Source of the DNA: Bacteroidota bacterium
GTDB lineage: Bacteria; Bacteroidota; Bacteroidia; Bacteroidales; UBA12077
DNA: 64,000 nucleotides
NCBI GenBank assembly: GCA_020444275.1
Contig: JAHLLG010000002.1
Location: forward strand, 481,991 to 545,990
Reading direction: 5' to 3'
Below, in pieces: positions 10,823 to 61,269 of the stretch (the stretch's first letter is position 1; each line of letters opens with the position of its first letter). Made by a program: the position numbers and the translations under genes. The notes under the pieces were generated by a model. That model did no database searches and was not told the DNA's origin. It saw only the letters and a program-made list of their open reading frames with translations.

Positions 10823-10860
10823 ACTATCCTTGTATAGTTAATATTAATCTTCAAAATGCT

Positions 10861-10900: not shown

Positions 10901-10960
10901 ACGACTGCTTGGATTTACATGGCTTATCAAAGTTTATTTTATATGTGTGATTAACTTTTA

Positions 10961-11731
10961 ATGAAAAGTATGAAAAATAAGAAACTATATGTTGCCATAA
11001 TTCTATTTGTATTAGGACTCATTGGTATATTATCGATGTTAACAACCAATATGCCAATGCCACAGGATATTAGAGAACTTTTAGAAGTTCAGTATTCTTC
11101 GTTTCAGATTAAGTTGCTTCTTTTAATAAATCCAACCTTTTTGTTGATAGTTGCTATTACCATCGGTATATTTACCTATGATAGAGTGAATCTTAGTTTA
11201 CCTGTTATCGAGTCTTTTATTGATAGTAGAGTTAAAGCTGAATTCAAAAATATTATAATTTTTGGTTTTGTAGGCGGAATAATTGCGGGATTATTAATGA
11301 TTTTGGTGGGAGAGTCGTTTAGTAAAATTTTACCGGATGATCTTTCTCATTTGAGCCAGGATGTAAAACCAACCATTGTATTAAGATTATTGTATGGAGG
11401 ACTAACAGAAGAAATATTGATGCGATTTGGCGTGATGACCTTAATGGTATGGTCACTATCGCTGCTAATCAATAAAAAATATACCATAGTTTATTGGCTT
11501 GGAATTATTTTATCATCATTCATATTCGCTTTAGGCCACTTTCCAATTGTATTTAATACTATGGAGAATCCGTCCTTTTTACTACTGACCTACATTTTGG
11601 TTGGAAACTCAGCCGGTGGAATCATTTTTGGCTGGCTTTATTGGAAAAAAGGACTGGAGAGTGCTTTTATTGCACATATGTTTGCACACATAACCATGAT
11701 AATAGGAGAATATCTGTTTTATATCTTGTGA
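10961..11731 (+). CDS. CPBP (CAAX/Abi, PF02517-type) intramembrane glutamic endopeptidase
   Basis: Multi-pass membrane protein with motif 1 (EEILMRFG), motif 2 (FALGHFP) and motif 3 (AHMFAH). Confidence 0.8.
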   Translation: MKSMKNKKLYVAIILFVLGLIGILSMLTTNMPMPQDIRELLEVQYSSFQIKLLLLINPTFLLIVAITIGIFTYDRVNLSLPVIESFIDSRVKAEFKNIIIFGFVGGIIAGLLMILVGESFSKILPDDLSHLSQDVKPTIVLRLLYGGLTEEILMRFGVMTLMVWSLSLLINKKYTIVYWLGIILSSFIFALGHFPIVFNTMENPSFLLLTYILVGNSAGGIIFGWLYWKKGLESAFIAHMFAHITMIIGEYLFYIL

Positions 11732-44234: not shown

Positions 44235-44391
44235 AGTTCTTTATGCAATTTCATTGATGGAACCTGTAAGTTATTTTGTACTAGTTAAGTTGACAAGCCT
44301 AATTTACTAAATTAGCCTGTAGAATAAAAATTAATTGATAATTGATTTAATTATAGTTATACTTCATCATAAAAAGTAGTATTTTTATCAG

Positions 44392-44895
44392 ATGCATTAT
44401 ACCTTGCTGTACATTAGTGTTTTTTGGAGTTGCGTTGCGAGTTTTTTTCATCCTGTACATTACTCCATTACGAATATGGATTATTCAATATCTGAAAAAA
44501 AAGTTGAGATTTCTTCAAAAATTTTTAAAGACGATTTTAGATTAGTTCTATTCCATTTGTTTGAAAAAGATATAGATATAGATAATCCTGAAAAGTTAGA
44601 TCAAAATTTAAAGCTAATTCATGACTATTACGTATCTCATGTAATAATAAGTGATGGAGATATAAAAATCAACTTGCAACGAAATAGTATAAAAACAGAT
44701 AAAGAATATATTAACTTTAATTATTATTTTGAGCTTAAAAATGAATCAGATCAATTAGAAATCGTAAACACAATTCTGTTAGATTTGTATTTTGATCAAA
44801 AAAATATGTTGATATTTGGATCTGAGAATAAAGAAAAAGGGTATCTTTTTAATCTCAGGGAAACAAAACACAAAGTGCTTTTAGATGAGTTTTAA
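44392..44895 (+). CDS. small exported protein, DUF6702-like
   Basis: 167 aa. A hydrophobic N-terminus is followed by HPVHYSITNMDYSISEKKVEISSKIF, which resembles the N-terminal signature I associate with DUF6702. It overlaps the next gene by 11 nt. Confidence 0.55.
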   Translation: MHYTLLYISVFWSCVASFFHPVHYSITNMDYSISEKKVEISSKIFKDDFRLVLFHLFEKDIDIDNPEKLDQNLKLIHDYYVSHVIISDGDIKINLQRNSIKTDKEYINFNYYFELKNESDQLEIVNTILLDLYFDQKNMLIFGSENKEKGYLFNLRETKHKVLLDEF

Positions 44896-47497
44896 ATCCG
44901 GAAGAAATATACTAAGTTGCTTACTGTTTATGTTGTTAGCAATCAATCTATTTGCTACGCATAATCGAGCAGGAGAAATAACGTATACTCAAATTTCAGA
45001 CCTGACCTATGAAATTACAGTAACTACTTACACTTATACACTAAGCAATGTAGACAGAGAAGAGCTAGAGGTAGAGTGGGGAGATGGTACATTTTCTACT
45101 GTTCAACGTTACGATTTACTCGAATTACCCGACTATTATCAACGTAACAGATATGTGGCGCAGCATACATTCCCGGGTCCCGGAGTGTATACTGTTTTAG
45201 TTCAGGATCCCAACCGGAATTTTGGAGTTGAAAATATACCGAACTCTGTAAACACAGTTTTTTCGGTAAAGACAACTATTTTTGTGAATCCTGATTTAGG
45301 GAGAAATAATACTCCCGTTTTATTGAATCCACCGATTAATCAGGCTGCTCAGTTCAGAACCTTTGTGCATAATCCCGGTGCGTACGATCCCGATGGCGAT
45401 AGCCTTGCCTACAAGTTAACAACTTGTACCGGAGAAGATGGTGAGCCTATTAGTGGTTATTCTTTACCACCGGCAACATCTTTTCTTGAAATGAATGAAC
45501 TAACCGGCGATTTAATTTGGAAAACGCCGCCGGATACAGGAAAGTATAATCTGGCCATTCAGATTGATGAGTGGAGACATGGTGTGAAAATTGGTTCTAT
45601 TGTCAGAGATATGCAAATTGATGTGTTTCCAACGGAGAATCATCCTCCGCAAGTTGATTCCATTGGAGAAATTTGTGTGCTAGTTGGCGATACGGCCGAA
45701 GCTATAATAAGAAGCACCGATGAGGATTTGGATAATATAGAGATTACAGCTTCAGGAGGTCCATTCCTTTACGAAAACAGTCCGGCAGTACTTGAAGAAA
45801 TATCCAGTACTGAAGGTGAAACTGTATCTAAATTCAGTTGGATAACCAAATGTAATCACATTCGGAAAGAACCATATCTTGTAATTATTTCGGCTAAAGA
45901 TGATCATCCCGATGTAAATTTGGTAGGGTTGCAACGTTTGTTAGTAAAAGTAATTGGGCCGGCGCCTAAAGGGTTGGTTGCCGAAGCGGGCAATGCATTT
46001 ATACGATTAAACTGGGAATCTCCCGACAATTGTGATCCGGCAAAATATTTAATTTACAGAAAAATAGGTTCGCAAAATTATATGCACGATAGTTGCACCA
46101 CAGGATTAGAAGATTCAGAATATGAATTTGTTGATGAAACAACAGATACAGCTTATATTGATAACGACAATGGTGAGGGATTGGTGCAAGGATTCGACTA
46201 TTGTTACCGAATTGTAGCCGAATATGATGATGGGGCCCAAAGTTTCCCATCTGAAGAAATATGTGCTTCTATAGCACCCGGGTTTCCTATCATGACGAAT
46301 GTTAGTGTAGAAACCACAGAACCAAATACTGGAGAAATAATGGTGCGTTGGGCACAACCAGATCGGTTAGATACCATACCTGATGCAACAGGTCCGTTTA
46401 AGTATTTAATATACCGATCGGAAGATGAATTTGGCATGTATCTGAGTATACTTGATTCTCTTGATAATTTAGCTGATACAACATTTTATGATTCAGGTTT
46501 AAACACAGAGGAAAACCAGTATTCATATGAAGTAGCGCTATACAATACAGCCCCGGGAAATCGATTTAAAGTTGGTAATCCGCAGTTAGCATCTTCAATA
46601 TTTTTAGATTTAGTACCCGCAGACAATCAGGTGCAGATTAACATTCAGAAAAATACACCTTGGTTGGATAATGAATATGTTATTTACCGATTAAATAATG
46701 TGAGTGGACTGTATGATTCAATTGCTTATACAACAAATCGTTCATATACAGATACAAAGTTGAAAAACGGTAATACATATTGTTATAAAGTAAAGAGTAT
46801 TGGAACTTATAAAATTGATACCGTTGAGCATCCAACCATAAACTGGTCGCACGAGAATTGTCAGATACCCGAAGACTATCAGCGACCTTGTCCTCCTGCG
46901 TTAAATGTGAGATCGGCATGCGATAGTTTGAAAAATATTTTAACATGGAACAATCCGAACTTAACTTGTGCCGATGATGTTATTGCTTACAAGGTATACT
47001 ATTCGAATAATACAGAGCAAAACCTTGATTCTATTTTAAGGATTGAAGGTGCAGAGAATACGTTTTTCGACCATTTCCCGGAAGAATCACTTGGAGCGTG
47101 TTATGCAGTTACGGCAGTTGATTCGTTTAATAACGAGAGTGAGTTATCTTATGTAAAATGCGTAGATGATTGTTCCTATTACATTTTACCGAACGTTTTT
47201 TCTCCTAACGGCGATGGAATCAATGATATGTATGTTGCTGATAATCCGTCAGGTTTTGTAAAACGTGTGGATATGAGAATATTTGACCGTTGGGGAGAAC
47301 TGGTTTATCATACGGTAAATCCCGATATTGAATGGGATGGAAGAGATGAGAATACCAGTAAAATTGTCTCATCAGGTGTTTACTATTACATTTGTGATGT
47401 GTGGGAACCCAGAATATCAGGTGTAGAAGTTAGAAATATGGTAGGTTTTATACATGTATATTCCGATAAATCAGAAGGTCAGTTTAGTAATGAATAA
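44885..47497 (+). CDS. T9SS type-B C-terminal sorting domain protein (large cell-surface adhesin-like protein)
   Basis: 870 aa. Signal peptide, THNRAGEITYTQ N-terminal module, DPDGDSLAYKL cadherin-like motif and several FN3-like repeats. The C-terminus reads YYILPNVFSPNGDGINDMY…FDRWGELVY…WDGR…SSGVYYY, the gliding-motility/CHU_C type-B CTD. Confidence 0.88.
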   Translation: MSFKSGRNILSCLLFMLLAINLFATHNRAGEITYTQISDLTYEITVTTYTYTLSNVDREELEVEWGDGTFSTVQRYDLLELPDYYQRNRYVAQHTFPGPGVYTVLVQDPNRNFGVENIPNSVNTVFSVKTTIFVNPDLGRNNTPVLLNPPINQAAQFRTFVHNPGAYDPDGDSLAYKLTTCTGEDGEPISGYSLPPATSFLEMNELTGDLIWKTPPDTGKYNLAIQIDEWRHGVKIGSIVRDMQIDVFPTENHPPQVDSIGEICVLVGDTAEAIIRSTDEDLDNIEITASGGPFLYENSPAVLEEISSTEGETVSKFSWITKCNHIRKEPYLVIISAKDDHPDVNLVGLQRLLVKVIGPAPKGLVAEAGNAFIRLNWESPDNCDPAKYLIYRKIGSQNYMHDSCTTGLEDSEYEFVDETTDTAYIDNDNGEGLVQGFDYCYRIVAEYDDGAQSFPSEEICASIAPGFPIMTNVSVETTEPNTGEIMVRWAQPDRLDTIPDATGPFKYLIYRSEDEFGMYLSILDSLDNLADTTFYDSGLNTEENQYSYEVALYNTAPGNRFKVGNPQLASSIFLDLVPADNQVQINIQKNTPWLDNEYVIYRLNNVSGLYDSIAYTTNRSYTDTKLKNGNTYCYKVKSIGTYKIDTVEHPTINWSHENCQIPEDYQRPCPPALNVRSACDSLKNILTWNNPNLTCADDVIAYKVYYSNNTEQNLDSILRIEGAENTFFDHFPEESLGACYAVTAVDSFNNESELSYVKCVDDCSYYILPNVFSPNGDGINDMYVADNPSGFVKRVDMRIFDRWGELVYHTVNPDIEWDGRDENTSKIVSSGVYYYICDVWEPRISGVEVRNMVGFIHVYSDKSEGQFSNE

Positions 47498-49981: not shown

Positions 49982-52198
49982 TTATCTTTTTAATACCGTT
50001 ATTAAACCATTGCCTTTTTTTATGCAGTTCCCAATATGCGTTGCAAATTCAATTCCGGCATCTTTGAGTTTCGATAACGCTTCATCTTTTTGATCCTGAG
50101 GAACCGTGAATAGCAAACCACCTGAGGTTTGTGCATCAGATAATATTATTTTTTCGACATCCGAAAGGTTTTCGTTCCACTCAATGTATTTTCCAAAATG
50201 ATTCAAATTATTTATTGACCCTCCAGGGATTACATTACTAGCAGCAAATTCCCAGGTTTCTTCAATAACCGGTACTTTTTTCGAAAATATCTCAACATCT
50301 ACTTTACTTGCCAGGGTTATTTCACTCAAGTGCCCTAATAAGCCGAAGCCGGTAACATCAGTGCAGGCATTCACATTAAAACCTTTAATAATATCGGCAG
50401 CATATTTATTTAACTCCGACATGGTTTTAATTGCAAATTCTTCTGTTTTCTTTTCAACCAGTCCACGCTTTAGTGCCGTTGCAATAATTCCCAGGCCAAT
50501 AGGTTTAGTTAAAATAATAGCATCACCTTCTTTTGCTCTGGAGTTGGCCAAAATATTATTAGGATGTGCAATACCACTTACCACCATACCGAATTTAGGT
50601 TCCGGATCATCTATGGTATGTCCTCCTAAAATGCTTATACCCGCTTCACTGGCTTTATCCTGTGCGCCTTTTAATATTTGTTTCAATACCTCCATTGGCA
50701 AACGATTTGAAGGAAAACCCACAATATTCAATGCAAAAATAGGAGTGGCTCCCATAGCATAAATATCGCTTAACGCATTAGCAGCTGCAATTGCACCGAA
50801 ATCATACGGATTATCCACAACAGGTGTGAAAAAATCAACAGTTTGTACCAGTGCAGTATCATTATTTATTTTATAAACAGCAGCATCGTCGGAATGATTT
50901 GTATCAATAAGAATATTAGGGTTTTGAATAACCGGAATATCTTTTAAAATCTTTTCTAATTCTTGTGGTCTTAATTTACATGCACATCCGAGGCCCTGAG
51001 TATATTTGGTTAATTTAATATCAGAAATATCTTTATCCGAGGTAGATTTTAGTTCTTTATCTGACACATTAAATTGCTTAACCGTTTCGATGATAATTTT
51101 TGATGCTCTGTTAATTTCGTGTTCAGTTGTGGTTTTACCTACTGAGAATCGAATGGTTCCCATAGCATAGTCAGTATTTAACTTAATTGCGGTTAATACC
51201 GGCGATACATCAACCGAATCGGTATGGCATGCCGCTCCGGCAGATGCTGCAATACCTTTACTTTCTAACTCATTTAGTAAGATATTTGCTTCGATACGAG
51301 GAAAACTAACATTAAGTGTGTTTGGTAACCGGTGTTCAGGATGACCATTGAGTTTAATGTTTGGAATCGCTTCTTTAAGCTTTGTGTATAATAAATTGCG
51401 AACCGACTGCATGTGTGTAATATTTCTATACAAATATCGATGTGCTATTTCACACGCTTTACCCAGTCCAACAATCTCTAGTACATTTTCAGTTCCGGCT
51501 CGTTTGTTTTGCTCATGATCTGCACCGTGAATTAGTTTTTCTAATTGAATACCTTCTTTAATGTACAAAGCTCCAATTCCTTTAGGGGCATATAACTTGT
51601 GGCCGGCAATAGAAAGAAGATCAACACCCAGCTCTTTCACATCAACCGGGTACTTTCCTGTAGATTGGGCAGCATCGGTATGAAAATAGATACCGTGTTT
51701 TTGTGCAATCTTGGATATCTCCGAAACAGGTTGAATACTTCCAATTTCATTGTTGGCATGCATAATGGTAATCAGGATGGTTTGCTTGGTAATAGCCTGT
51801 TCTAATTTATGTGTGTCAACTATACCATGCTCATCAACCGGAATATATGTAATATTAAACCCTTTTCGTTCCAGGTATTTACACACCTCAATAACAGCAG
51901 GATGTTCAATGGTTGATGTGATGATATGATTTCCTCTGTTCTCATATGCATAGGCAATACCTTTAATGGCATAGTTATTCGATTCTGAGCCACCACTGGT
52001 AAATATTATTTCGTGTGGTTTGCAATTGATTAGGTTTGCAAGCTGTTTACGGGCATTTTCAACTGCTTTTTTGGTTTCTATACCAAAGCTGTGTGAGCTG
52101 GAAGGATTTCCAAAATAATCTGCCAAATAGGGTTGCATAGCTTGTGCTACTTCTTTATCAATTGGCGTAGTGGCATTATAGTCAAGATATATTTTCAT
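49982..52198 (-). CDS. selD: fusion protein: NifS/IscS-like cysteine desulfurase (selenocysteine lyase-like) plus selenide, water dikinase (selenophosphate synthetase)
   Basis: N-terminal half: MKIYLDYNATTP, GNPSSSHSFG, the PLP lysine in SIAGHKLYAPKGIG and the active-site Cys in SAGAACH. C-terminal half: KLTKYTQGLGCACKLRPQELEKIL (SelD Cys/Lys loop), DDAAVY, GGHTIDD, TDVTGFGLLGH. I prefer the ATG at 52198; an alternative ATG lies at 52258. Confidence 0.9.
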   Translation of the reverse strand: MKIYLDYNATTPIDKEVAQAMQPYLADYFGNPSSSHSFGIETKKAVENARKQLANLINCKPHEIIFTSGGSESNNYAIKGIAYAYENRGNHIITSTIEHPAVIEVCKYLERKGFNITYIPVDEHGIVDTHKLEQAITKQTILITIMHANNEIGSIQPVSEISKIAQKHGIYFHTDAAQSTGKYPVDVKELGVDLLSIAGHKLYAPKGIGALYIKEGIQLEKLIHGADHEQNKRAGTENVLEIVGLGKACEIAHRYLYRNITHMQSVRNLLYTKLKEAIPNIKLNGHPEHRLPNTLNVSFPRIEANILLNELESKGIAASAGAACHTDSVDVSPVLTAIKLNTDYAMGTIRFSVGKTTTEHEINRASKIIIETVKQFNVSDKELKSTSDKDISDIKLTKYTQGLGCACKLRPQELEKILKDIPVIQNPNILIDTNHSDDAAVYKINNDTALVQTVDFFTPVVDNPYDFGAIAAANALSDIYAMGATPIFALNIVGFPSNRLPMEVLKQILKGAQDKASEAGISILGGHTIDDPEPKFGMVVSGIAHPNNILANSRAKEGDAIILTKPIGLGIIATALKRGLVEKKTEEFAIKTMSELNKYAADIIKGFNVNACTDVTGFGLLGHLSEITLASKVDVEIFSKKVPVIEETWEFAASNVIPGGSINNLNHFGKYIEWNENLSDVEKIILSDAQTSGGLLFTVPQDQKDEALSKLKDAGIEFATHIGNCIKKGNGLITVLKR

Positions 52199-52444
52199 GG
52201 TATTGATTTTATAAAATGTAAATGTACAAAAGTTAAGCGAATTCGGACTTGTAAACATTTCTAATTGTATATTAAAATAAAATGATAAAATGACAGATAT
52301 ACCTTGCTGTGCTTTGCCAGAATGACCTAAAGAAGAGTTTGTTAGCTGACATAATTTCAGTTATTTTGATTGGTATAACCTTTGTAATAATATGCTTGAA
52401 AACGAAACAAAATGTCTAACTAAAATTTATAGGAGGGCCAAATT

Positions 52445-52876: not shown

Positions 52877-52884
52877 GATAGATG

Positions 52885-52908
52885 AGCGGGTGAGAGCCCG
52901 CTTTTTTA
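52885..52908 (+). terminator. rho-independent terminator of hsp20
   Basis: AGCGGG-tgagag-CCCGCT followed by TTTTTTA. Confidence 0.8.
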
Positions 52909-52933
52909 TTGCAATCTTTTTGGATTTATTTTT

Positions 52934-52941
52934 TACATTTG
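52934..52941 (+). promoter_or_regulatory. candidate -7 promoter box for the GT-C/sulfotransferase operon
   Basis: TACATTTG 26 nt upstream of the 52967 ATG. It shares TTACATTTGTGTA with the folP promoter. Confidence 0.5.
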
Positions 52942-52966
52942 TGTAAACTGAAAATAATCCGGAAAG

Positions 52967-54613
52967 ATGTCAAAACATAAACAAAAACTAAAATCAAAAG
53001 AAAAACCTAAAGATATTTTTGAAAGATTAGATCAATTCTTCGATAAACGAGGAAATGTATTTTTCTGGATATCGCTCTTTTTCACATTACTTTTCTCCTT
53101 TTTACTTTTTAATTTTAGAGTAAGCGAAGCAGGTGATGATTCTGCATATATTTTCAGAGCTTTTTTATTTGTAAAAGAGTTTAAATTTCCATCTTTCCAG
53201 GGGCCGCTATATCCTATATTTATGAGCTTTTTTATTTGGATTTTTGGGTTAAATATTACACTACTCAAATCATTATCATTAGTTTCAATCATATTTCATC
53301 TTTATTTTTTCTATAAAGCCTTTAAAGGAAGAGTTTCTGGATTATTAATGGTATATGTAATGATTATAATATCGTTTAATGCATTTGTATTGTATTATTC
53401 GAGTCAAACCTATTCGGAAGCTTTTTATTTATGTTTGCAAGCCGTATTCTTCTGGTTCTTTTTTAATGCATTTGTTTCAAAAGCTGAGAGTCCCGGAATA
53501 AAAGATAGTTGGGGAGCTTATTTGATATTAGGTATGTTAATTCTTTTTCTCGGATTAACACGTAGCATTGGTTATGGTGCATTTATAGCTGTTTTGTTAT
53601 TTTTTGCTGTTACCAAAAAATGGAAAAGCATGCTATTTACCACGGGAGCTTTTGCCCTGGAGTTTGGACTTTTTAATTTCATTAAAAAGATAGTATTTCA
53701 ATCCTCGGCATCTCAGTTTTCGACGCAATTAACACGCTTAATGCAGGTAGATCCATTTGATGCATCCAAAGGGAGTGAAGATTTTGTAGGCTTTATTGCA
53801 CGCTTTGTTGGTAATTCTAATTTATACTTATCAAAGCACATTTATAAATTCCTGGGCCTGCGGCCTGAAGTTTTGCAGCCCAACGGATTCTTAACGCTAA
53901 TTATTTATGCCTTGTTTTTTGTTGCCATTTATTATGCTTTTAAAAAAAACAAGTATCTTTTGTTTACAGGTATTTACCTGATGGTTTTAATTGGAATTAC
54001 ATTTGTTATTGTACAAACACGTTGGGATCAGGATCGACTAATATTAGTATATTTCCCGTTGATTCTTTTATTTTTATTTTCTGGAATTTATTATTTGGGA
54101 AAGCAGAAATCGGCAAAATTTATTCAGGTTTTATTGCCTGTTCTGTTTATTGTCCTATTTTTCACAAACCTTAATGTAACATCACGTAAAGTAAAAGAAA
54201 ACGATGAATACTTAATGCAATCTCTTGCCGGTAATCAGTTTTATGGTATGACAAACGATTGGATTAACTACATAAAAATGAGCCAATGGGCTGCTAAAAA
54301 TGTTCCACCGGATGTAATGATAGCCTGCAGAAAACCCAGTATATCTTTCATTTATGCCAAGCGTCAGTTTTATGGAATTTACAGATATAGTACAGAAGAT
54401 CCTGATAAATTATTACAACGACTAAAGGATAATAATGTTAAATATGTTATTATGGCTAGTTTGCGTAAATATCCCAAACAAAAAACAGAATATACTATTA
54501 ACACAGTTCAACGATATTTATATTTCATACAGCAGAAGTATCCTGAGAAAATTAAACATGTGCAAACTATAGGTGTAGATGAACCGGCCTATTTATTTGA
54601 AATAGTATATTAG
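52967..54613 (+). CDS. GT-C fold (ArnT/PMT-like, GT39/GT83-type) integral-membrane glycosyltransferase, putative
   Basis: 548 aa, more than 10 predicted TM helices. There is an acidic first-loop motif (SEAGDDSAYIFRAF) where GT-C enzymes carry DE/DD..Y, and a soluble C-terminal domain of about 150 aa. Confidence 0.5.
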   Translation: MSKHKQKLKSKEKPKDIFERLDQFFDKRGNVFFWISLFFTLLFSFLLFNFRVSEAGDDSAYIFRAFLFVKEFKFPSFQGPLYPIFMSFFIWIFGLNITLLKSLSLVSIIFHLYFFYKAFKGRVSGLLMVYVMIIISFNAFVLYYSSQTYSEAFYLCLQAVFFWFFFNAFVSKAESPGIKDSWGAYLILGMLILFLGLTRSIGYGAFIAVLLFFAVTKKWKSMLFTTGAFALEFGLFNFIKKIVFQSSASQFSTQLTRLMQVDPFDASKGSEDFVGFIARFVGNSNLYLSKHIYKFLGLRPEVLQPNGFLTLIIYALFFVAIYYAFKKNKYLLFTGIYLMVLIGITFVIVQTRWDQDRLILVYFPLILLFLFSGIYYLGKQKSAKFIQVLLPVLFIVLFFTNLNVTSRKVKENDEYLMQSLAGNQFYGMTNDWINYIKMSQWAAKNVPPDVMIACRKPSISFIYAKRQFYGIYRYSTEDPDKLLQRLKDNNVKYVIMASLRKYPKQKTEYTINTVQRYLYFIQQKYPEKIKHVQTIGVDEPAYLFEIVY

Positions 54614-54614
54614 C

Positions 54615-55655
54615 ATGAGTAAAGGTGCCGATTTTTCAAGGTTAGGAGTACGATTAAGAAAAGGCGTTTATATTTTCTCAAAAATAATTTTTGCTTTTAA
54701 TTCAGCTGCTTATTATGTGCTATGGTTAAAGTTTTTACAGGTAGTTTTAGCACCATTTGACTTATTCATTAGCTGGATTGAGCATCGTAGATTAAAAAAG
54801 CAAATTAATAAGAACATTCCAGTAATTTTTGTGGTAGGTATTCAACGGACCGGATCAACAATGGTTTCGCAATTTATTGAAAAGAACTTTAGTTTTTTCC
54901 CCATAGGAAACTTCAATTCTATATTTAAACGATCAAATTATTATATTCACAGATGGCTTGCAAAAGTGTATAAACGACCGAATCCATCTTATCAGAATTT
55001 TTATGGTATTTCAAAAGGATTTTTTTCAATCGGCGATTGCTACGAGCTGTGGGATAGGTGGTTTGGTAAAAATCATTATATCATACCGGATTCAATTTCT
55101 GATGAGCAAGAAACTGATATACAGGAGTTTTTCACGTCGCTTTATAGCGCATATAAACGGCCTTTGTTAACAAAAAATAATCGAAATTCACTATTGTTGC
55201 CACTTTTCGAAGATAGTTTTAAAAACGCCTTTTTCGTTGTGGTAAAGCGCGATCCGGTGGCGGTAATTCGGTCAACCATAAAAGCCAGTAAAGATTTCTT
55301 TGGTGATGAAAGTTTGTTATGGGGCTTATATCCTTCTGCAGATTTTGATACCAGCAATTATGAAAATATAATAGAGGCTGCGACGGTTCAATTTTTAATG
55401 CTTGAGCAAATTTTAAATAAACAACTGGAGAAGCTTGATAGGAGTTCGTATTTATTGGTTGATTATAATGATTTTTGTGCTAATCCGTCTGCCTTTCAGG
55501 AGGATTTAATTAAACGCTTATCGGATAAAGAAGGTTACGATGTTAAAAGTGTGCAGGTAAGAACAGAACCTTTTCGTGTTTCAAATCGGTTAAATAATTC
55601 TGATCTGGATGAGCAAATAAATCTATATTTAAATAAATGGCAGGATAAAATCTGA
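54615..55655 (+). CDS. PAPS-dependent sulfotransferase-family protein
   Basis: 346 aa. 5-prime-PSB-like loop VVGIQRTGSTMVSQF and 3-prime-PB-like VVVKRDPVAVIRS. It starts 1 nt after the preceding stop. Confidence 0.6.
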   Translation: MSKGADFSRLGVRLRKGVYIFSKIIFAFNSAAYYVLWLKFLQVVLAPFDLFISWIEHRRLKKQINKNIPVIFVVGIQRTGSTMVSQFIEKNFSFFPIGNFNSIFKRSNYYIHRWLAKVYKRPNPSYQNFYGISKGFFSIGDCYELWDRWFGKNHYIIPDSISDEQETDIQEFFTSLYSAYKRPLLTKNNRNSLLLPLFEDSFKNAFFVVVKRDPVAVIRSTIKASKDFFGDESLLWGLYPSADFDTSNYENIIEAATVQFLMLEQILNKQLEKLDRSSYLLVDYNDFCANPSAFQEDLIKRLSDKEGYDVKSVQVRTEPFRVSNRLNNSDLDEQINLYLNKWQDKI

Positions 55656-55714
55656 CAACCATTTTTTGATATACAAAAATCAATATCTTTACGCTTCGTT
55701 TAAAATAGAGGGTT

Positions 55715-56593
55715 TTGACAAAAGATAAATTAAAGAAAATATTCAATTTTATTTTTAAGCTGGCTATTACCATTCTAGCCATTTACATTGTGGTTCGTAA
55801 GATTAATATTAGTGAGTTGTGGGAATACATCAGGGAAGTAGATTTGTTGTACTTATGTTTGGCGCTTATAACGTTAGGCGTTTCAAAAATAATTGAAGCA
55901 TTTCGTTTAAATATTTTCTTTCGAGCGAAAAATATTGGTCTGGATCATTGGCAAAATCTTAAGCTCTATCTTTTAGGAATGTTTTACAACCTGTTTCTTC
56001 CAGGAGGTATTGGCGGTGATGGATACAAAGTATATTGGCTAAAGAAAAATCAGGGAGCAAAATTAAAAACTGTGATCTGGGCTTCTATTTTAAACAGGGT
56101 TAACGGACTTTTTGGTTTAGTGATATTAATTTGTATTTCTGCTCTTTTTATTTCGTTTAACTTTAAGTACAACCAACTTTTAATATTAACTATTCCTGTT
56201 TTATACCTAATTTACTATTTTGTATTGAAATATTTTTTTAATGATTACACCAAAACTTTACCTAAAACAACTATACAATCAGTTATTATTCAGTTTCTAC
56301 AAGTACTTTCGGCACATTTAATCTTAATAGGTCTAGGCTTAAGTTCATCGTATCCCGATTACTGGTTCTTGTTTTTAATATCAGGAATAATATTCGCTAT
56401 ACCGGTAACATTAGGCGGTTTTGGATCAAGAGAGTTAGTATTTGTTTATGCATCGCAGTTCTTAGCAGTTGATGTTAACCTTGCAGTAGCGTTAGGCCTG
56501 CTTACCTATGTACTGCGGGCCATCTTATCATTTAGTGGCGTTTATTTTGTAGCTTTCCCGGATAAATTAAACAAAATAAATTCAGCAACTTAG
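55715..56593 (+). CDS. UPF0104 / lysyl-PG-synthase-TM (MprF flippase-like) family membrane protein
   Basis: 292 aa, about 8 TM. The motif YNLFLPGGIGGDGYKVYWL is characteristic of the flippase-like family. TTG start. Confidence 0.7.
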   Translation: MTKDKLKKIFNFIFKLAITILAIYIVVRKINISELWEYIREVDLLYLCLALITLGVSKIIEAFRLNIFFRAKNIGLDHWQNLKLYLLGMFYNLFLPGGIGGDGYKVYWLKKNQGAKLKTVIWASILNRVNGLFGLVILICISALFISFNFKYNQLLILTIPVLYLIYYFVLKYFFNDYTKTLPKTTIQSVIIQFLQVLSAHLILIGLGLSSSYPDYWFLFLISGIIFAIPVTLGGFGSRELVFVYASQFLAVDVNLAVALGLLTYVLRAILSFSGVYFVAFPDKLNKINSAT

Positions 56594-56642
56594 ACAGATT
56601 TTTTTAAATTTGTTTGCTTTTTAATATTCTTACAAAACTTAT

Positions 56643-58079
56643 ATGCTTGAAATAAAGTCAAATCGTGCAAAGGAGTTCCATGCTTATTTCGAAAAATTAG
56701 CACCTAAATATACAAAGTACAGAAAGAGATATAATTATTTCTGGAATAATATTATCAAGTATTGTAATTATTATATTCAGGATGAAAATTCCGTATTGGA
56801 AATTGGTTGTGGTAATGGCGATTCTCTTTCTCAGATGAAGGGTAAGCATAAAACGGGGATTGATTTTAGTTCTGCTATGATAGAGATTGCAAAGAAAAAC
56901 CATCCCGAAATAGAATTTCATACGATGCTGGCCGAAGAGATTACATTGGATAAAAAGTACGATGTTGTGCTTTTAACTGGTGTAATGGGGTATTTTGATA
57001 ATGTATTGGAGGTTTTAAATTCTTTAAAAAAGGTGTGTCACCCAAAAACGAGAATTATTATTTCCTATTACAATCATATTTGGGAACCAATTTTAAAGAT
57101 TGGTGAATTTCTAAGAATTAAAAAGAGAACACCACGTAAAAACTGGCTCTCGAAACATGACATTGAGAATTTGTTGTATTTATCAGATTTTGAGTCGTTC
57201 AGAACAACAAGGAGTTTGCTTATACCAATAAATATTCCAATTATCTCTTATTTATTTAACCGCTATATTGCTCGATTACCGTTATTCAACTCGATGTGTG
57301 TTAATAAGTTTATTAATGCTCGTCCGATATTTCATCAAAAAGTGGAAAAGAAACCGGAATTTTCTACAACTGTAGTAATACCTGCCAGAAACGAGAGCGG
57401 TAATATAGAAGATGCTATTAAACGATTACCCAAGTTTGGTAAACATATTGAAATTATTTATGTTGAAGGTAATTCTACTGACGATACCTGGGAAACAATT
57501 CAAAAAATACAAGAGAAATATAAAGATACGCACGATATTAAAATAACTCAGCAGGAGGGCAAAGGTAAGGGAGATGCTGTTAGAAAAGGATATTCGATTG
57601 CAACTGGTGATATATTGATGATTTTGGATGCTGATTTAACGGTGCCACCAGAAGATTTACCAAAATTTTATGAAGCGTTGGCTTCTGGTAAAGGAGAATT
57701 TATTAATGGTTCACGCCTGGTATATCCAATGGAAAAAGAAGCTATGCGTTCATTAAATACTGCCGGAAACAAATTCTTTAGCTGGGTATTTAGCTGGCTG
57801 TTAGAGCAACCAATAAAAGATACACTATGTGGAACAAAGGTAATGTTCCGCGAAGATTATCTTCGTTTACAGGCTAATAGAAAATTCTTTGGAGAGTTTG
57901 ATCCATTTGGAGATTACGACTTGCTGTTTGGAGCGTACAAGTTGAATTTAAAAATAATTGACTTGCCTATTCGATACCGGGAAAGAACGTATGGAGATAC
58001 CAATATTTCTCGTTTCCGACATGGATTTTTATTACTTCGAATGTGTTGGTACGCAGCAGGTAAAATAAAGTTTTGGTAG
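56643..58079 (+). CDS. bifunctional class I SAM-methyltransferase / family-2 glycosyltransferase (polyprenyl-phosphate glycosyltransferase-like)
   Basis: 478 aa. N-terminal VLEIGCGNGDSL MTase motif. C-terminal GT2 domain: TTVVIPARNESGNI, EGNSTDDT, ILDADLT (DxD), plus terminal TM helices. Confidence 0.8.
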   Translation: MLEIKSNRAKEFHAYFEKLAPKYTKYRKRYNYFWNNIIKYCNYYIQDENSVLEIGCGNGDSLSQMKGKHKTGIDFSSAMIEIAKKNHPEIEFHTMLAEEITLDKKYDVVLLTGVMGYFDNVLEVLNSLKKVCHPKTRIIISYYNHIWEPILKIGEFLRIKKRTPRKNWLSKHDIENLLYLSDFESFRTTRSLLIPINIPIISYLFNRYIARLPLFNSMCVNKFINARPIFHQKVEKKPEFSTTVVIPARNESGNIEDAIKRLPKFGKHIEIIYVEGNSTDDTWETIQKIQEKYKDTHDIKITQQEGKGKGDAVRKGYSIATGDILMILDADLTVPPEDLPKFYEALASGKGEFINGSRLVYPMEKEAMRSLNTAGNKFFSWVFSWLLEQPIKDTLCGTKVMFREDYLRLQANRKFFGEFDPFGDYDLLFGAYKLNLKIIDLPIRYRERTYGDTNISRFRHGFLLLRMCWYAAGKIKFW

Positions 58080-58101
58080 AAAAATTAAGCAGTTAACTGT
58101 A

Positions 58102-58120
58102 CGAGAGTTCAAAACTCTCG
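58102..58120. terminator. hairpin between convergent genes (possible terminator, no clear U-run)
   Basis: CGAGAGTT-caa-AACTCTCG perfect 8-bp inverted repeat. Only a weak T-rich tail follows on the + strand. Confidence 0.3.
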
Positions 58121-58148: not shown

Positions 58149-58532
58149 TCATTCAAAAAGTCCGTTATCTCTAATGAGCATAAGAATAGCATTGTGTGGA
58201 ACAATTACATACTTTTCATTTTTAAACTCTATTTCCCAGGTATTACTTTGCAGATACACCGCTAAATCTCCTTCGGTTGGTTGTAAAGGAACATATTTCA
58301 CTTCATTGCTTTTATCTTTCCATGGTTCATCAACATCCTGTATAGCCGGAATAGGATAACCGGGGCCAACTTTTAATACATAACCACAATGAATCTTTTC
58401 TTTTTCCTGCACGCCGGGAGGTAAATACAATCCCGACTTTGTTTTTCCTTGTGGAGTTTTGGGTTTGATTAGAACCCGGTCGCCCACCATAATGAACTTC
58501 TCCAGTTCGTGATCATTTATTGATAGTGCCAT
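58149..58532 (-). CDS. GroES/Cpn10-like protein (divergent, with insertion)
   Basis: VGDRVLIKPKTPQGKTKSGLYLP…GYVLKVGPG parallels the GroES mobile-loop region. The ATG at 58532 is preferred (the ORF-track start is a TTG). It lies 27 nt downstream of the histidine kinase gene. Confidence 0.6.
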   Translation of the reverse strand: MALSINDHELEKFIMVGDRVLIKPKTPQGKTKSGLYLPPGVQEKEKIHCGYVLKVGPGYPIPAIQDVDEPWKDKSNEVKYVPLQPTEGDLAVYLQSNTWEIEFKNEKYVIVPHNAILMLIRDNGLFE

Positions 58533-58559
58533 ATTCAACTTTTAGTATAAATTAGTTAT

Positions 58560-59915
58560 TTAAAATTCTAAAATAAATTCTGTTCCTTTTTTTAATTCTG
58601 AGTTAGCACGAATAGCTCCTTTATGTAACCGCATAATCTGACGCGAAAGGCTTAAGCCTATTCCTGAACCTTTCTTTTTTGTTGTGAAAAATGGTATAAA
58701 AATCTTATCCATATCGTCTGGATCAATTCCATTACCGTTATCAGAAATAATTATTCTATGCTTATTTGATGGTTGAGCTTGTATTTTTACTACAATCTTT
58801 GGCTTCTCTTGAGCACTAACTGCATCAATAGCATTGATTAAAAGGTTTATTACAACTTGTTCAATCTGATCGTAATCAGCATGCACATAAACAGCCGAAT
58901 ACGACTTAATCATATCAAATTGAATATTGTTATCTACTATATTCTTCTTTAGCAAAGTATAACAGTGGTTTATGAGCTCAACCAGGTTAACTTCTTTAAA
59001 ATCGGGTTTTGGTATGCGCGTTAACTGCTTGTAAGATGATACAAATTTTAAAAGTCCTTTACTTCGTGTTTCAATAGTTTTCAAGCTCGAAATCATATCC
59101 TCAAAATCATCATCCGATATCTCTGCCAGTTTGGCTTTATTTCCTCCAATTTCACTTAACGAGTCATTCATGGCATTACTTAAGGATGATATCGGGGTTA
59201 CCGAATTCATGATTTCATGCGTAAGAACGCGTATTAACTTTTGCCACGATTCTAGCTCCTGGAATTCCAGTTCCTGTTTAATATTTTGTAAAGAGATTAG
59301 TTTTATTTGTTTATTCTGAATTTTGATTTCGGTTGCATAAATCGATAAGTGCAACAAATCATTATGAATTTTTACCTTAATTAATTCGCTTTCGCCAGAT
59401 TTAAGGCGCAGAACCAGGTTGTATAAATTAACATCAAAAGATTTTAAATGACTAATTTTATTATTTTGATGAATACCAAGTAAATCTGAAGCTGTTTTAT
59501 TAATGAACTGTATATTTCCATTTTGTTCAAATGTAAATAAGGCAACACGAACATGCTCAATCAGGGTTTTAAGGTAGTGGTACTGTACTTCCTTATCGAT
59601 TCGGATATTCTGAAACTCAGTCATGATTATGTTGTAGGCTTCTTTCAGAATGTCTTTTGATTTTTTGTCGGATACCGACGATGATGAACTGATAAAATCA
59701 CGCGATTTTATGGATAATAAAAATTCACTTAGACCTTTTTTATATTTCTCAGCATATTGAATAATACTGATTAAAACTGCAATGGACAAAATTGCACTAA
59801 TTACTGTAGTTACGTACCATTCTTCTTGCTGAAAGGCATAAATTGCACTAAACATAGCCATGCTTAGTACAAGAGAGCGAATGATAATGCCTAATCTAAA
59901 ATTTCTAAAATCCAT
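58560..59915 (-). CDS. sensor histidine kinase (NtrB/AtoS-like, membrane-anchored)
   Basis: 451 aa. Two N-terminal TM helices, a PAS-like region, the H-box LTHEIMNSVTPI, N-box LLINAIDA, and G-boxes DNGNGI and GSGIGL. Confidence 0.9.
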   Translation of the reverse strand: MDFRNFRLGIIIRSLVLSMAMFSAIYAFQQEEWYVTTVISAILSIAVLISIIQYAEKYKKGLSEFLLSIKSRDFISSSSSVSDKKSKDILKEAYNIIMTEFQNIRIDKEVQYHYLKTLIEHVRVALFTFEQNGNIQFINKTASDLLGIHQNNKISHLKSFDVNLYNLVLRLKSGESELIKVKIHNDLLHLSIYATEIKIQNKQIKLISLQNIKQELEFQELESWQKLIRVLTHEIMNSVTPISSLSNAMNDSLSEIGGNKAKLAEISDDDFEDMISSLKTIETRSKGLLKFVSSYKQLTRIPKPDFKEVNLVELINHCYTLLKKNIVDNNIQFDMIKSYSAVYVHADYDQIEQVVINLLINAIDAVSAQEKPKIVVKIQAQPSNKHRIIISDNGNGIDPDDMDKIFIPFFTTKKKGSGIGLSLSRQIMRLHKGAIRANSELKKGTEFILEF

Positions 59916-61269
59916 ATTTTGTCATTTTACGGTACATGGTTGTTCTGCCTAATCCAAGTTCTTTCGCTGCTGCACTAACATTATAATTATGCTTTTTTAG
60001 TGCTTTCTCAATGGTGTTTTTTTCAACTTCTTCCAGATTAAGATTATTTTTATTGATCGCTGAAGTTTCAGAAATGTTCAAAACAATATCCGTAGCATTT
60101 ATTATGTTGCTATTGCTCATGATAACTGTTCGTTCAATGATGTGCTGTAGTTCGCGGATGTTACCGGGCCATGTATATTTTTTTAACTTTTTGATAGCAT
60201 CGGTGCTGAGTTTCATATCTGTTTTCTTATACTTACGTTTATATATTTCTAAGAAATGATTTGAAAGTAACGGAATATCATCAATACGATCGCGCAATGG
60301 TGGAACGTGAATTTCTACGGTATTAATTCTAAAGAACAGGTCCTGACGAAACTCGTTACGGTCTACCATTTCTTTTAGAGGCATATTTGTTGCGCAAACC
60401 AATCTAAGATCAACCGGAATAGGTTGATTTGAACCAACTTTTACAATTTCTTTCTTTTGTATCGATGTGAGTAATTTTGATTGAAGAGGGAGAGAAAGGT
60501 TTCCAATTTCGTCTAAGAAAAGCGTACCCTGATTTGCAATTTCAAAACGTCCTGTGCGATCTTCTTTTGCATCGGTAAAAGATCCTTTCGTATGCCCAAA
60601 GAGTTCCGATTCGAACAATGTTTCCGCAATTGCTCCTAAATCAACATTTACAAAAAGATTTTTTGATCGCTGGGATTTTCTGTGAATGGCTCTTGCGATT
60701 ACTTCTTTACCTGTACCATTTTCTCCAAGTATAAGAATGTTTGCATCGGTATTGGCAACCTTATCAATAATATTTAGCAACTCTTTAATCTGTTCCGACT
60801 CGCCAATAATTTCAGAAAACGTTTGATCAATATCCTGAACCAATACTTCCTGTTTTGATTTAAGTTGTGATATTTCTTTCTTAGATTGGCTTAATTTAAA
60901 TGCTGATAGAATTGTTGCGAGTAACTTTTTATTATCCCAGGGTTTAACTACAAAGTCAACAGCGCCATTTTTCATGGCTTCAATGGCTAAATTAATGTCA
61001 CCATAAGCTGTCATCATGATAACGGTTGCTTTCGGATCAAGTGATAATATTTTTTTTAGCCATGCTAAACCTTCCTTCCCGCTAGTTGCACCCGTAGTAA
61101 AGTTCATGTCTAAAAGAATAATATCAAACAATTGTTTTTCGATGTATGGAACTATATCATCAGGATTAGAAACGGTTTTAATTTCTTTAAATTCTTTTTT
61201 AAGGACCACTTTGGTTGAAAGTAAGATGTCCTTATCATCATCAATAACCAGTATTTTTCCTTTAATCAT
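59905..61269 (-). CDS. sigma-54-dependent Fis-family response regulator (NtrC-type enhancer-binding protein)
   Basis: 454 aa. Receiver domain (ILVIDDD…DMNF), AAA+ domain (GENGTGKE, the GAFTGA-equivalent GHTKGSFTDA, ESELFGH, FRQDLFFR) and a C-terminal HTH (AAAKELGLGRTTMYRKM). Confidence 0.93.
   Translation of the reverse strand: MIKGKILVIDDDKDILLSTKVVLKKEFKEIKTVSNPDDIVPYIEKQLFDIILLDMNFTTGATSGKEGLAWLKKILSLDPKATVIMMTAYGDINLAIEAMKNGAVDFVVKPWDNKKLLATILSAFKLSQSKKEISQLKSKQEVLVQDIDQTFSEIIGESEQIKELLNIIDKVANTDANILILGENGTGKEVIARAIHRKSQRSKNLFVNVDLGAIAETLFESELFGHTKGSFTDAKEDRTGRFEIANQGTLFLDEIGNLSLPLQSKLLTSIQKKEIVKVGSNQPIPVDLRLVCATNMPLKEMVDRNEFRQDLFFRINTVEIHVPPLRDRIDDIPLLSNHFLEIYKRKYKKTDMKLSTDAIKKLKKYTWPGNIRELQHIIERTVIMSNSNIINATDIVLNISETSAINKNNLNLEEVEKNTIEKALKKHNYNVSAAAKELGLGRTTMYRKMTKYGF

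Follow-up and report, generated by a model that had tools for sequence, protein, structure and literature searches.

Genes and boundaries of the locus

The stretch of DNA analyzed here (the window, 64,000 nt) contains, within positions 52934-58120, four open reading frames on the plus strand, g1 to g4, that are separated by gaps of 1, 59 and 49 nt (Table 1). These frames, a promoter box TACATTTG upstream and a closing hairpin had been proposed from the nucleotide sequence alone to form an operon, and all of them were located as described. The motifs quoted in the original prediction are likewise present in the translations: EAGDDSAY in g1, QRTGSTMV and KRDPVAVIRS in g2, LPGGIGGDGYKVYW in g3, and PARNES and DADL in g4. 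The operon structure is supported by the short distances between the genes, by conservation of the promoter block and by hairpins at both flanks.

Table 1. Features of the g1-g4 locus, in window coordinates
Feature	Positions	Strand	Description
Terminator hairpin of upstream Hsp20 gene	52884..52903	+	8-bp stem with 5 GC pairs, then TTTTTTATT
Promoter block CTTTTTGGATTTATTTTTTACATTTGTG	52916..52943	+	28 nt; contains -7 box TACATTTG
Bacteroidota-type -7 box TACATTTG	52934..52941	+	Inside the 28-nt conserved block
g1	52967..54613	+	548 aa; GT-C-fold membrane glycosyltransferase, uncurated family
g2	54615..55655	+	346 aa; PAPS-type sulfotransferase (Sulfotransfer_3), N-terminal hydrophobic anchor
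g3	55715..56593	+	292 aa, TTG start; MprF-type flippase-like polytopic membrane protein
Possible internal promoter box TAAATTTG	56605..56612	+	TAnnTTTG type; g3-g4 gap, 31 nt upstream of g4
g4	56643..58079	+	478 aa; class I SAM methyltransferase-GT2 fusion
Hairpin between g4 and convergent Cpn10-like gene	58102..58120	+	8-bp stem, 3-nt loop

The hairpin on the Hsp20 side, which is also kept in relatives, is a strong terminator and forms the 5' boundary of the unit. The hairpin downstream of g4 has a weak T-tail, yet it was scored as terminator-like and is likely the 3' boundary. The pattern TAnnTTTG is not by itself enriched in the window (106 matches versus 100 expected). In six loci, the complete 28-nt block is retained upstream of g1 although the flanking intergenic DNA is otherwise divergent, and we consider it above chance because it is kept amid such poorly conserved sequence. 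A second TAnnTTTG box is conserved in the g3-g4 gap, in seven of the eight loci carrying the g2-g3 cassette described below, so g4 may have a separate transcript as well.

Protein families

The original prediction had assigned g1 to the GT-C enzymes, g2 to the sulfotransferases, g3 to the UPF0104/MprF flippase-like proteins and g4 to a methyltransferase-GT2 fusion, and profile and structure searches agree with each assignment. For g1, profile searches matched no Pfam or NCBIfam family, and only 4 of 40 homologues gave weak PMT_2 matches. However, when its AF2 model (pLDDT 88, pTM 0.87) was compared with the PDB by using Foldseek, the top 24 matches were all GT-C enzymes. The fold was thus as expected, whereas ArnT and PMT, to which g1 had been likened, were not the best matches; these were the oligosaccharyltransferases (OSTs) STT3, AglB and PglB. 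TM-scores reach only 0.44-0.58 overall, with modest values of 0.5-0.58 for OSTs and similar values for ArnT, ALG12, DPY19 and AftA. Hydropathy indicates approximately 11 transmembrane (TM) helices in g1, and its loops, in both sequence and model, agree with the positive-inside rule. In the family alignment, D57-D58 is invariant in the first outward loop, after TM1. The C-terminal alpha/beta domain (residues 430-548), for which a periplasmic location is predicted, begins with an invariant D431-W432 pair, roughly at what we take to be the position of the WWDYG motif of OSTs. Matches to the g1 family come from metagenome-assembled genomes (MAGs), Carboxylicivirga, Saccharicrinis and one Prolixibacteraceae isolate.

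The g2 protein scores 44.2 bits against PF13469 (Sulfotransfer_3; cut-off 27) and belongs to a small family of 56 clusters, every one of which matches this profile. Both PAPS-binding motifs, the 5'-PSB loop (GxxRTGST) and the Arg...Ser pair of the 3'-PB motif, are invariant across the family (R78-T79-G80-T82 and R212...S220), and TPST1/2 and the CurM sulfotransferase are weak profile matches. The N-terminal anchor spans approximately residues 18-53 and includes a single hydrophobic segment (34-53) with basic residues on either side. Families for PAPS synthesis were absent from the approximately 44 ORFs scanned in the window.

With g3, both relevant thresholds are exceeded: 96 bits against PF03706 (LPG_synthase_TM, formerly UPF0104; threshold 33.4) and 79 bits against TIGR00374 (threshold 43.2). 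The protein has approximately eight hydrophobic segments, and its nearest named relatives, judged by NCBIfam names, flip modified phosphatidylglycerols. These names agree with the known substrates of the MprF family, which are glycerophospholipids rather than polyprenyl-linked sugars.

In g4, Pfam and NCBIfam profiles delimit a class I SAM methyltransferase domain (approximately residues 26-230) and a GT2 domain resembling DPMS, ArnC and AglJ (approximately 240-470). Invariant residues include G55, C56 and D74 of the SAM motifs and D329 and D331 of the DxD motif. The closest solved structures to the GT2 domain are Pyrococcus DPMS (5mlz, 3.8e-17) and then ArnC (1e-11). Among NCBIfam models, AglJ is the best match (107 bits, equivalog cut-off 325), and ArnC scores 44 bits (cut-off 529); every equivalog cut-off lies far above the score of g4. 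Secondary GT2 matches include glucosyl-3-phosphoglycerate synthase, and the methyltransferase domain resembles PmtA, UbiG and ChlM, which are small-molecule and lipid methyltransferases. The g4 model is of poor quality over its C-terminal third (pLDDT < 50). Hydropathy analysis found no hydrophobic window and no TM helix in g4, which is therefore predicted to be peripheral on the membrane; DPMS, GtrB and ArnC, in contrast, have C-terminal TM helices. More than 8000 homologues of g4 were found, and named matches of the g1, g2 and g4 families are MAG entries labeled "hypothetical" or "glycosyltransferase".

A conserved core with a variable slot

At least 10 further loci show the four-gene arrangement. 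It is not an indivisible unit, however: the conserved unit is g1 plus g4 only, an uncharacterized two-gene module found across the phylum. These genes are adjacent in approximately 58 of 80 related genome loci, and also as far afield as Flavobacteriales and Chitinophagales; adjacency persists in Flavobacteriales and other Bacteroidia MAGs, where identity to the g1 relative is only 36%. Genes flanking the module are otherwise unrelated between loci. The module appears to be widespread in environmental Bacteroidota, with the present locus probably a lineage-specific version.

The g2 and g3 genes are a swappable, clade-restricted cassette in a variable slot between g1 and g4. This slot holds the cassette in 9 of the 80 loci and methyltransferase type b in 9, and is empty in approximately 23; methyltransferase type a lies within or beside the module in 16. 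Slot methyltransferases in relatives amount to one or two extra genes. The sulfotransferase and flippase-like genes always co-occur in the loci examined, and none of the loci lacking the sulfotransferase yielded a g3 homologue by tblastn. Because a nearby flippase gene is missing from most instances of the module, g3 is not the generic flippase of the pathway; the flippase-like protein goes with sulfation. Accordingly, in the three-component operon of GT2, flippase and GT-C originally envisaged, the GT2 and GT-C core holds, but the flippase-like gene belongs to the clade-restricted cassette.

The g2-g3 pair resides inside the g1-g4 module in 11 of 12 loci, namely the 9 genome loci, the window and locus L089, which belongs to a lineage with a sulfotransferase of only 43% identity. 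In the remaining locus, L090, the cassette occurs without g1 or g4, so its products could serve another substrate; there it is followed by a polytopic membrane protein with TPR repeats that may be a GT-C-like enzyme. Fucose or another GDP-sugar is hinted at by five close relatives in which gmd and fcl lie next to g1, at a distance of 5-18 nt; three of these five also carry the sulfation cassette.

A proposed pathway and its relation to known systems

On balance, we slightly favor a pathway in which g1-g4 and the cassette together attach a methylated and probably sulfated lipid-linked sugar to an envelope target. Judging from homology and gene pairing, the GT2 domain of g4 would transfer a sugar from its nucleotide to polyprenyl phosphate at the cytoplasmic face. 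A GDP-sugar is the probable donor, and fucose or a mannose-derived sugar is the leading candidate. The fused methyltransferase would then O-methylate the lipid-linked sugar, the membrane-anchored g2 would sulfate it by using PAPS, and the intermediate, by then strongly anionic, would be moved across the membrane by g3. At the periplasmic face, g1, by virtue of its GT-C fold, would presumably move the sugar onto a conserved envelope acceptor. The predicted product is a (deoxy)hexose that bears methyl and sulfate groups and is attached to the cell envelope, and the slot between g1 and g4 would be a variable decoration site. That lipid A is the acceptor is pure speculation. Precedents exist for changing a sugar on its carrier: undecaprenyl phosphate- or decaprenyl phosphate-linked pentoses are epimerized in this state (PMC11127046), and Haloferax has dolichol phosphate charged with sulfated hexose, as well as the methyltransferase AglP (PMC3871713). 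A bacterial counterpart of the g1-g4 system with sulfation was not found in literature searches, in line with what the original prediction had supposed for Bacteroidota.

Other explanations were considered. The g2-g3 pair might be an independent sulfolipid module that sulfates a lipid or glycolipid head group and flips it to the outer leaflet, with no substrate common to g1-g4, into whose permissive slot it would simply have inserted. The phosphatidylglycerol-flipping relatives of g3 are in keeping with such a module, as are the isolated pair in L090, a slot that clearly permits insertions and a g4 gene that, beyond the cassette, seems to have kept a promoter box for itself. We nevertheless consider it unlikely, given that the pair sits in the g1-g4 module everywhere but in L090, that the tiny g2 family appears bound to this context, that g2 starts 1 nt past the g1 stop codon, and that the slot is otherwise filled by methyltransferases, which could plausibly decorate the same sugar. 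Even the L090 pair precedes a membrane protein that is perhaps GT-C-like.

Two further readings concern the core. If g1 were an OST- or ligase-type enzyme that transfers polyprenyl-diphosphate glycans en bloc, for example to proteins, then g4, instead of being a polyprenyl-phosphate sugar synthase, could elongate or cap that glycan in the cytoplasm by adding a terminal sugar and methylating it. Its lack of a TM helix would suit this role, and glycans are capped by known methyltransferase-glycosyltransferase fusions, such as WsaE and WbdD-type terminators. The structural matches and D431-W432 of g1 also point in this direction, and no OTase has yet been identified for the O-glycosylation system of Bacteroidota (PMC12871550). 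However, no initiating phosphoglycosyltransferase, Wzx or further glycosyltransferase genes lie beside g1-g4 in any context examined, and the GT2 relatives DPMS, ArnC and AglJ all act on polyprenyl monophosphate. Moreover, OSTs match g1 hardly differently from other GT-C enzymes, and the g1 family was not seen among model Bacteroidota with general O-glycosylation. This reading is therefore improbable. We give still less credence, indeed very little, to a GT2 domain acting on a non-polyprenyl lipid or small molecule (diacylglycerol, ceramide or a phosphoglycerate-type compound) with subsequent methylation of the product and a functionally unrelated g1. The glucosyl-3-phosphoglycerate synthase match and the PmtA-, UbiG- and ChlM-like domain are compatible with it, but g1-g4 adjacency persists across Bacteroidota orders despite changing neighbors, and GT-C enzymes, as far as is known, use lipid-phosphate-linked donors (PMC11127046).

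Among the closest known systems to the favored pathway are the three-component Gtr system for O-antigen glucosylation of Shigella and Salmonella (GtrB GT2, GtrA flippase and GtrC-type GT-C) and the related CsbB/GtcA/YfhO teichoic-acid system. As in Gtr, a GT2 of the polyprenyl-phosphate-sugar-synthase type is paired with an extracytoplasmic GT-C in a small self-contained cluster apart from the main glycan locus (PMC11127046). Unlike Gtr, the window locus has no GtrA/SMR-type flippase, and its sole flippase-like gene is MprF-type and confined to the sulfotransferase variant. In addition, its GT2 carries a fused methyltransferase and no TM helices, its GT-C falls in no curated family, and sulfation and methylation are predicted to be built into the module.

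In the Arn system for lipid A aminoarabinose (ArnC, ArnD, ArnE/F and ArnT), a GT2 close to that of g4 charges undecaprenyl phosphate, and ArnD alters the lipid-linked sugar chemically before flipping and GT-C transfer. However, g4 falls far short of the ArnC equivalog cut-off, g1 is outside the ArnT family by sequence, and the change in Arn is deformylation, whereas methylation and sulfation are proposed here. The Agl pathway for N-glycosylation in Haloferax volcanii (AglJ/AglD, the AglP methyltransferase, flippase candidates AglR/Agl15, and AglS) resembles our proposal in its AglJ enzyme and in a methyltransferase that acts in a dolichol-phosphate glycan pathway; dolichol phosphate charged with a sulfated hexose has been described there, and AglS uses separately charged, flipped DolP-mannose (PMC3871713). 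Agl differs in being archaeal, in producing an N-linked glycan, and in having separate proteins and flippases of different families.

The g3 protein resembles the MprF flippase domain but lacks an aminoacyl-PG synthase domain and reaches only 27 bits against the MprF equivalog cut-off of 600; its proposed substrate, a sulfated polyprenyl-phosphate sugar, would be without precedent in that family. Finally, g2 shares its PAPS-binding motifs with Sulfotransfer_3-type enzymes such as TPST-like proteins and the CurM sulfotransferase domain, a type that among bacterial carbohydrate and protein sulfotransferases also includes NodH and Stf0. It differs from the TPST-like and CurM enzymes in forming a small separate family, in its N-terminal anchor and in its constant pairing with a flippase-like gene.

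A conserved gene pair around a variable slot

The genes for a GT-C-like membrane protein (g1) and for a fusion of a methyltransferase with a family 2 glycosyltransferase (GT2) domain (g4) constitute a conserved genomic pair. When one genome per species was scanned, 210 loci encoding relatives of g1 were obtained, and 80 of them were kept for comparison. In approximately 58 of these 80, g4 adjoins g1, as determined by tblastn and clustering of ORFs. The genes that flank the pair are otherwise unrelated between loci, and the same pairing is found in Flavobacteriales and other Bacteroidia MAGs in which the GT-C protein is 36% identical to g1. By contrast, the two genes that lie between g1 and g4 in the window, coding for a sulfotransferase (g2) and an MprF-type flippase-like protein (g3), are confined to 9 of these 80, always as a pair. 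The features noted in the original prediction are thus confirmed, and its interpretation is partly supported: the g1-g4 core recurs widely, and the full four-gene block in far fewer loci. Neither the profile searches nor the conservation of the block contradicted the prediction.

The position between g1 and g4 behaves as a swappable slot. In nine loci it holds a class I methyltransferase (type b), and in 16 loci a class I methyltransferase unrelated to the former (type a) is located in or beside the module. Approximately 23 loci, such as those of Carboxylicivirga and Saccharicrinis, have nothing in the slot. The g2-g3 cassette is also carried by one locus outside the 80 (L089), and another such locus (L084), which is near-identical, ends after g2. 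Among the loci in which GT2 and GT-C genes occur together, a flippase-like gene accompanies them only in the nine that have the sulfotransferase, and it is of the MprF type, not the GtrA, SMR or MATE type. No GtrA-like small flippase was found near the module in the genomic contexts examined. The g2-g3 pair was found once away from g1 and g4 (locus L090, positions 7001-11036), where it is followed by the gene for a 702-aa protein that is hydrophobic in its N-terminal half and has TPR repeats at its C-terminus. This protein exhibits no profile similarity to g1, and may be a different GT-C-like partner.

In five close relatives, two genes identified from their sequences as gmd (GDP-mannose 4,6-dehydratase) and fcl (GDP-fucose synthase) abut g1 directly upstream, in the same orientation and at a distance of 5 to 18 nt. 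Three of these five loci have the sulfation cassette; neither gmd nor fcl is present in the window. This arrangement suggests that the sugar predicted to be transferred is a GDP-sugar, possibly fucose.

The named carriers of the module are MAGs, Carboxylicivirga, Saccharicrinis and one Prolixibacteraceae isolate, and the names of cluster members are MAG labels only, with no model organism among them. Some loci have other arrangements. One sub-clade of g1 relatives (48-51% identical; L017-L024, L057 and others) lacks g4 within the fetched flanks, and in several of its loci an M14 carboxypeptidase gene adjoins g1 instead. In distant modules (L085/L086, 2460-7431; L087/L088, 2762-7443), an FkbM-type methyltransferase (Methyltransf_21) is encoded upstream of the GT-C protein. 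It is preceded by a 2OG-Fe(II) oxygenase in L085/L086, while L087/L088 have a further class I methyltransferase between the GT-C gene and g4, and the distant modules contain up to three methyltransferase domains each. In a single clade (L032, L036, L038, L040, L042 and L044), a heptosyltransferase-like gene, GT9-like by sequence, lies downstream of g4 and is convergent with it; since ATP synthase genes come next, this proximity probably reflects plain synteny, not a link to LPS. No functional connection emerged from the neighboring M14 peptidase, CoaD, LtaS-like sulfatase and GT9-like genes, which look like lineage-specific synteny.

Layout and signals of the locus

The ORF coordinates confirmed four same-strand genes separated by gaps of 1, 59 and 49 nt, and all peptide motifs quoted in the original prediction were found in the translations. 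The proposed promoter box, TACATTTG, is located at 52934-52941, within a conserved block that is kept in six loci although the surrounding intergenic DNA has otherwise diverged. The pattern TAnnTTTG as such is not enriched across the window (106 found versus 100 expected). A second box of this form, TAAATTTG, is kept in seven of eight cassette-carrying loci, and g4 may therefore have its own promoter in addition. The closing hairpin is likewise present, at 58102-58120, with a weak T-tail, between g4 and a convergent Cpn10-like gene. GC content is uniform throughout the locus (29-36%), and base composition thus gives no support to a recent horizontal acquisition of g2-g3.

Features of the locus in window coordinates, and of gmd-fcl pairs in the coordinates of related loci
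Feature	Sequence	Coordinates	Strand	Details
Strong terminator hairpin of upstream Hsp20 gene	window	52884-52903	+	
Conserved block holding promoter box	window	52916-52943	+	28 nt, upstream of g1
g1, GT-C-like membrane protein	window	52967-54613	+	548 aa
g2, sulfotransferase	window	54615-55655	+	346 aa
g3, MprF-type flippase-like protein	window	55715-56593	+	292 aa, TTG start
Second TAnnTTTG box, TAAATTTG	window	56605-56612	+	between g3 and g4, 31 nt upstream of g4
g4, methyltransferase-GT2 fusion	window	56643-58079	+	478 aa
gmd+fcl	L005	793-2836		
gmd+fcl	L007	580-2630		
gmd+fcl	L009	1214-3254		
gmd+fcl	L010	7940-9995		
gmd+fcl	L014	1980-3767		

Upstream of the Hsp20 gene and divergent from it (49982-52258, minus strand) is a gene for a 758-aa protein in which a NifS-like class V aminotransferase is fused to a selenophosphate-synthetase-like AIRS/AIRS_C domain; it is conserved in close relatives. 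On the other side (58149-61269, minus strand), a stand-alone 129-aa Cpn10 (GroES)-like gene follows a pair coding for a histidine kinase and a sigma-54-type response regulator; these genes are convergent with g4 and syntenic in several relatives. Genes in the region 42357-47497 code for a protein that combines a caspase domain (Peptidase_C14) with a Glucodextran_B domain, for a DUF6702 protein and for one of 870 aa that bears a CHU_C type IX secretion signal.

Folds and motifs of the encoded proteins

As predicted, Pfam resolves g4 into a class I SAM methyltransferase and a fused GT2 domain (PF00535, 93 bits), and NCBI gives the product the name 'bifunctional class I SAM-dependent methyltransferase/glycosyltransferase family 2 protein'. 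Its SAM-binding residues are invariant, as is its DxD motif (D329-A-D331) in 40 homologues. The nearest solved relatives of the GT2 domain are Pyrococcus DPMS (5mlz, 3.8e-17) and ArnC (1e-11), with GtrB at 1e-4. No equivalog-level assignment was reached: the best NCBIfam model, AglJ, is below its cut-off (107.5 versus 325 bits), as are ArnC (44 versus 529) and DPhHxTase (51 versus 375). C-terminal transmembrane helices are present in DPMS, GtrB and ArnC, and are not universal in the subgroup. No such helix was found in g4, in which no 19-residue window reaches a Kyte-Doolittle value of 1.6. In the structural model of g4, only the methyltransferase and the initial half of the GT2 domain are good; the model is poor past residue 355, and the C-terminal third is of low confidence. 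As a means of finding the methyl acceptor, the fold search was uninformative, because only generic class I methyltransferases were returned. More than 8,000 homologues exist, and the best 120, with labels that include Flavobacteriales, Chitinophagales and Vicingaceae MAGs, are still 67-70% identical. Conservation of this degree suggests that environmental and marine Bacteroidota have an important envelope modification that is so far unstudied.

The proposal that g1 is a GT-C enzyme is supported by its fold and by an acidic loop motif, but not by membership in a curated family, as no Pfam or NCBIfam family was matched. An AlphaFold2 model built on 40 homologues (pLDDT 88, pTM 0.87) was compared with the PDB by using Foldseek, and the best 24 matches, with E from 5e-7 to 1.5e-2 and TMq of 0.35-0.58, are without exception GT-C enzymes: STT3, AglB, ALG12, DPY19, ALG9, AftA, PglB, PimE and also ArnT and Pmt4, representing the enzyme types to which g1 had been likened. 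Residues D57 and D58, located in the loop that follows TM1, do not vary among 40 homologues, and this DD is retained in relatives that are 36% identical. Hydropathy indicates approximately 11 hydrophobic helices. The N-terminus is very basic and K/R-rich loops alternate as expected for this number of transmembrane helices. From this pattern, both the DD loop and the alpha/beta domain at the C-terminus (residues 430-548) are predicted to be periplasmic.

Sequence-based searches with the g1 family profile gave no match to PDB sequences, such that only the fold comparison was informative. Weak PMT_2 matches occur in 4 of 40 homologues (best E 2.7e-5). In an exhaustive profile search, the family amounts to approximately 2,400 clusters at 50% identity, and no bridge to a named GT-C family was present among the 150 matches listed, all of which are close. 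Exact-sequence look-ups of the g1 of the window and of P0001 returned no record. The adjoining DPMS/ArnC-like GT2 indirectly suggests that g1 may use a polyprenyl-phosphate-linked donor.

The sulfotransferase assignment of g2 was borne out by PF13469 (Sulfotransfer_3; 44.2 bits versus a cut-off of 27, residues 69-302), which matches every one of the 56 homologue clusters in this small family. Among 30 family members, neither the 5'-phosphosulfate loop (R78, T79, G80, T82) nor the 3'-phosphate pair (R212...S220) varies at these residues. The PSB loop can be aligned with its TPST1 counterpart, and the family profile has weak matches to TPST1/2 and to the CurM sulfotransferase. Hydropathy reveals a single N-terminal hydrophobic segment. 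None of the approximately 44 ORFs within the 64-kb window belongs to a PAPS-synthesis family, a result that applies to the window only. The protein collection lacks the exact g2 protein, and the best match there is 96% identical; g1 and g4 have 100% NCBI matches, both from the same MAG contig (at least 1.28 Mb). The g2 gene may be called differently in the deposited annotation.

Similarly, g3 proved to be MprF-type and flippase-like (PF03706, 96.1 versus 33.4 bits; TIGR00374, 79.3 versus 43.2). It does not qualify as a bifunctional MprF, since NF033480 gives 27 bits versus a cut-off of 600 and the 292-aa protein has no synthase domain.

Possible route and relation to known systems

The best-supported reading, which we regard as slightly more likely than not, comprises a core and an accessory cassette. 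In the core, g4 would charge polyprenyl phosphate with a sugar at the cytoplasmic face and methylate it, and g1 would then move that sugar on the periplasmic face to a probably conserved acceptor. The cassette occupies the variable decoration slot, and in this organism g2 would sulfate the lipid-linked sugar and g3 would flip the resulting anionic intermediate. The analysis demonstrates the folds and family assignments, the invariance of the catalytic and cofactor motifs, the pairing of g1 with g4, the swappable slot and the strict linkage of g2 to g3. The lipid-linked donor, the sugar, the acceptor, the action of methylation and sulfation at the lipid-linked stage and the flipping by g3 are inferred. 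Precedents exist for altering a carrier-bound sugar: polyprenyl-P-pentoses are epimerised while on the carrier (PMC11127046), and Haloferax has a sulfated hexose on dolichol phosphate as well as the methyltransferase AglP (PMC3871713).

Other explanations assign the genes differently. The stray g2-g3 pair in L090 and the substrates known for MprF-family proteins would be consistent with g2 and g3 forming an independent sulfolipid module. However, the two genes are almost always located inside the g1-g4 module, and we consider their independence rather unlikely. Because oligosaccharyltransferase matches are at the top of the fold search, g1 could also be an OTase-like enzyme, with g4 serving as a cytoplasmic capping enzyme; this we judge improbable, given that no phosphoglycosyltransferase, Wzx or further glycosyltransferase genes are nearby and that g4 has an affinity to DPMS and ArnC. 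It is more improbable still that g4 acts on a non-polyprenyl acceptor.

In a more novel reading, to which we give less than an even chance, the g1-g4 pair would be an undescribed Bacteroidota route by which a single sugar, decorated beforehand, reaches a conserved envelope acceptor on a polyprenyl-phosphate carrier, and an MprF-family protein would have been recruited as flippase for a sulfated polyprenyl-P-sugar. The sugar would possibly be a methylated and, in this organism, sulfated fucose. This pre-decorated-sugar route has a bolder sub-case, in which g1 is a protein O-glycosyltransferase tied to the missing core or OTase step of Bacteroidota O-glycosylation; we assign this very little probability. 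According to a 2025 review, the core-glycan machinery, core flippase and OTase of that system are still unidentified (PMC12871550), and any conserved orphan GT-C protein therefore merits testing. Since the module was not seen among the named hits in model species that have the O-glycosylation system, a link between the two is a low-probability possibility.

What is new in these data is a GT-C family that lacks a curated profile and is closely tied to a strongly conserved methyltransferase-GT2 fusion. A hot-swappable slot, occupied by methyltransferases or by a sulfotransferase with a flippase, would offer a compact means of varying a single surface sugar. Should sulfation take place on the lipid carrier, sulfated bacterial glycoconjugates would be made by a new route, and MprF-like proteins would have a new function. 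The pre-decorated-sugar route, if true, would include a sulfated lipid-linked sugar donor, the first in bacteria, and MprF-like flippases would gain a class of substrate new to them. In agreement with the view that this pathway had not been described, we found no description of it in the literature on the g4 product name or on sulfotransferases in GT-C/undecaprenyl-phosphate systems. A paper on Actinoplanes deals with a different cluster, of the Wzx/Wzy type.

The pairing of a GT2 with a GT-C enzyme for glycosylation in the periplasm is a known principle, and the overall logic proposed here is shared with the three-component systems of the Gtr, Arn and CsbB/GtcA/YfhO types. Unlike in those systems, the GT-C protein is outside any curated family, and the GT2 is fused to a methyltransferase and has no transmembrane helices. 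Moreover, the module is without a GtrA-, SMR- or MATE-type flippase, and an MprF-type protein appears solely alongside the sulfotransferase.
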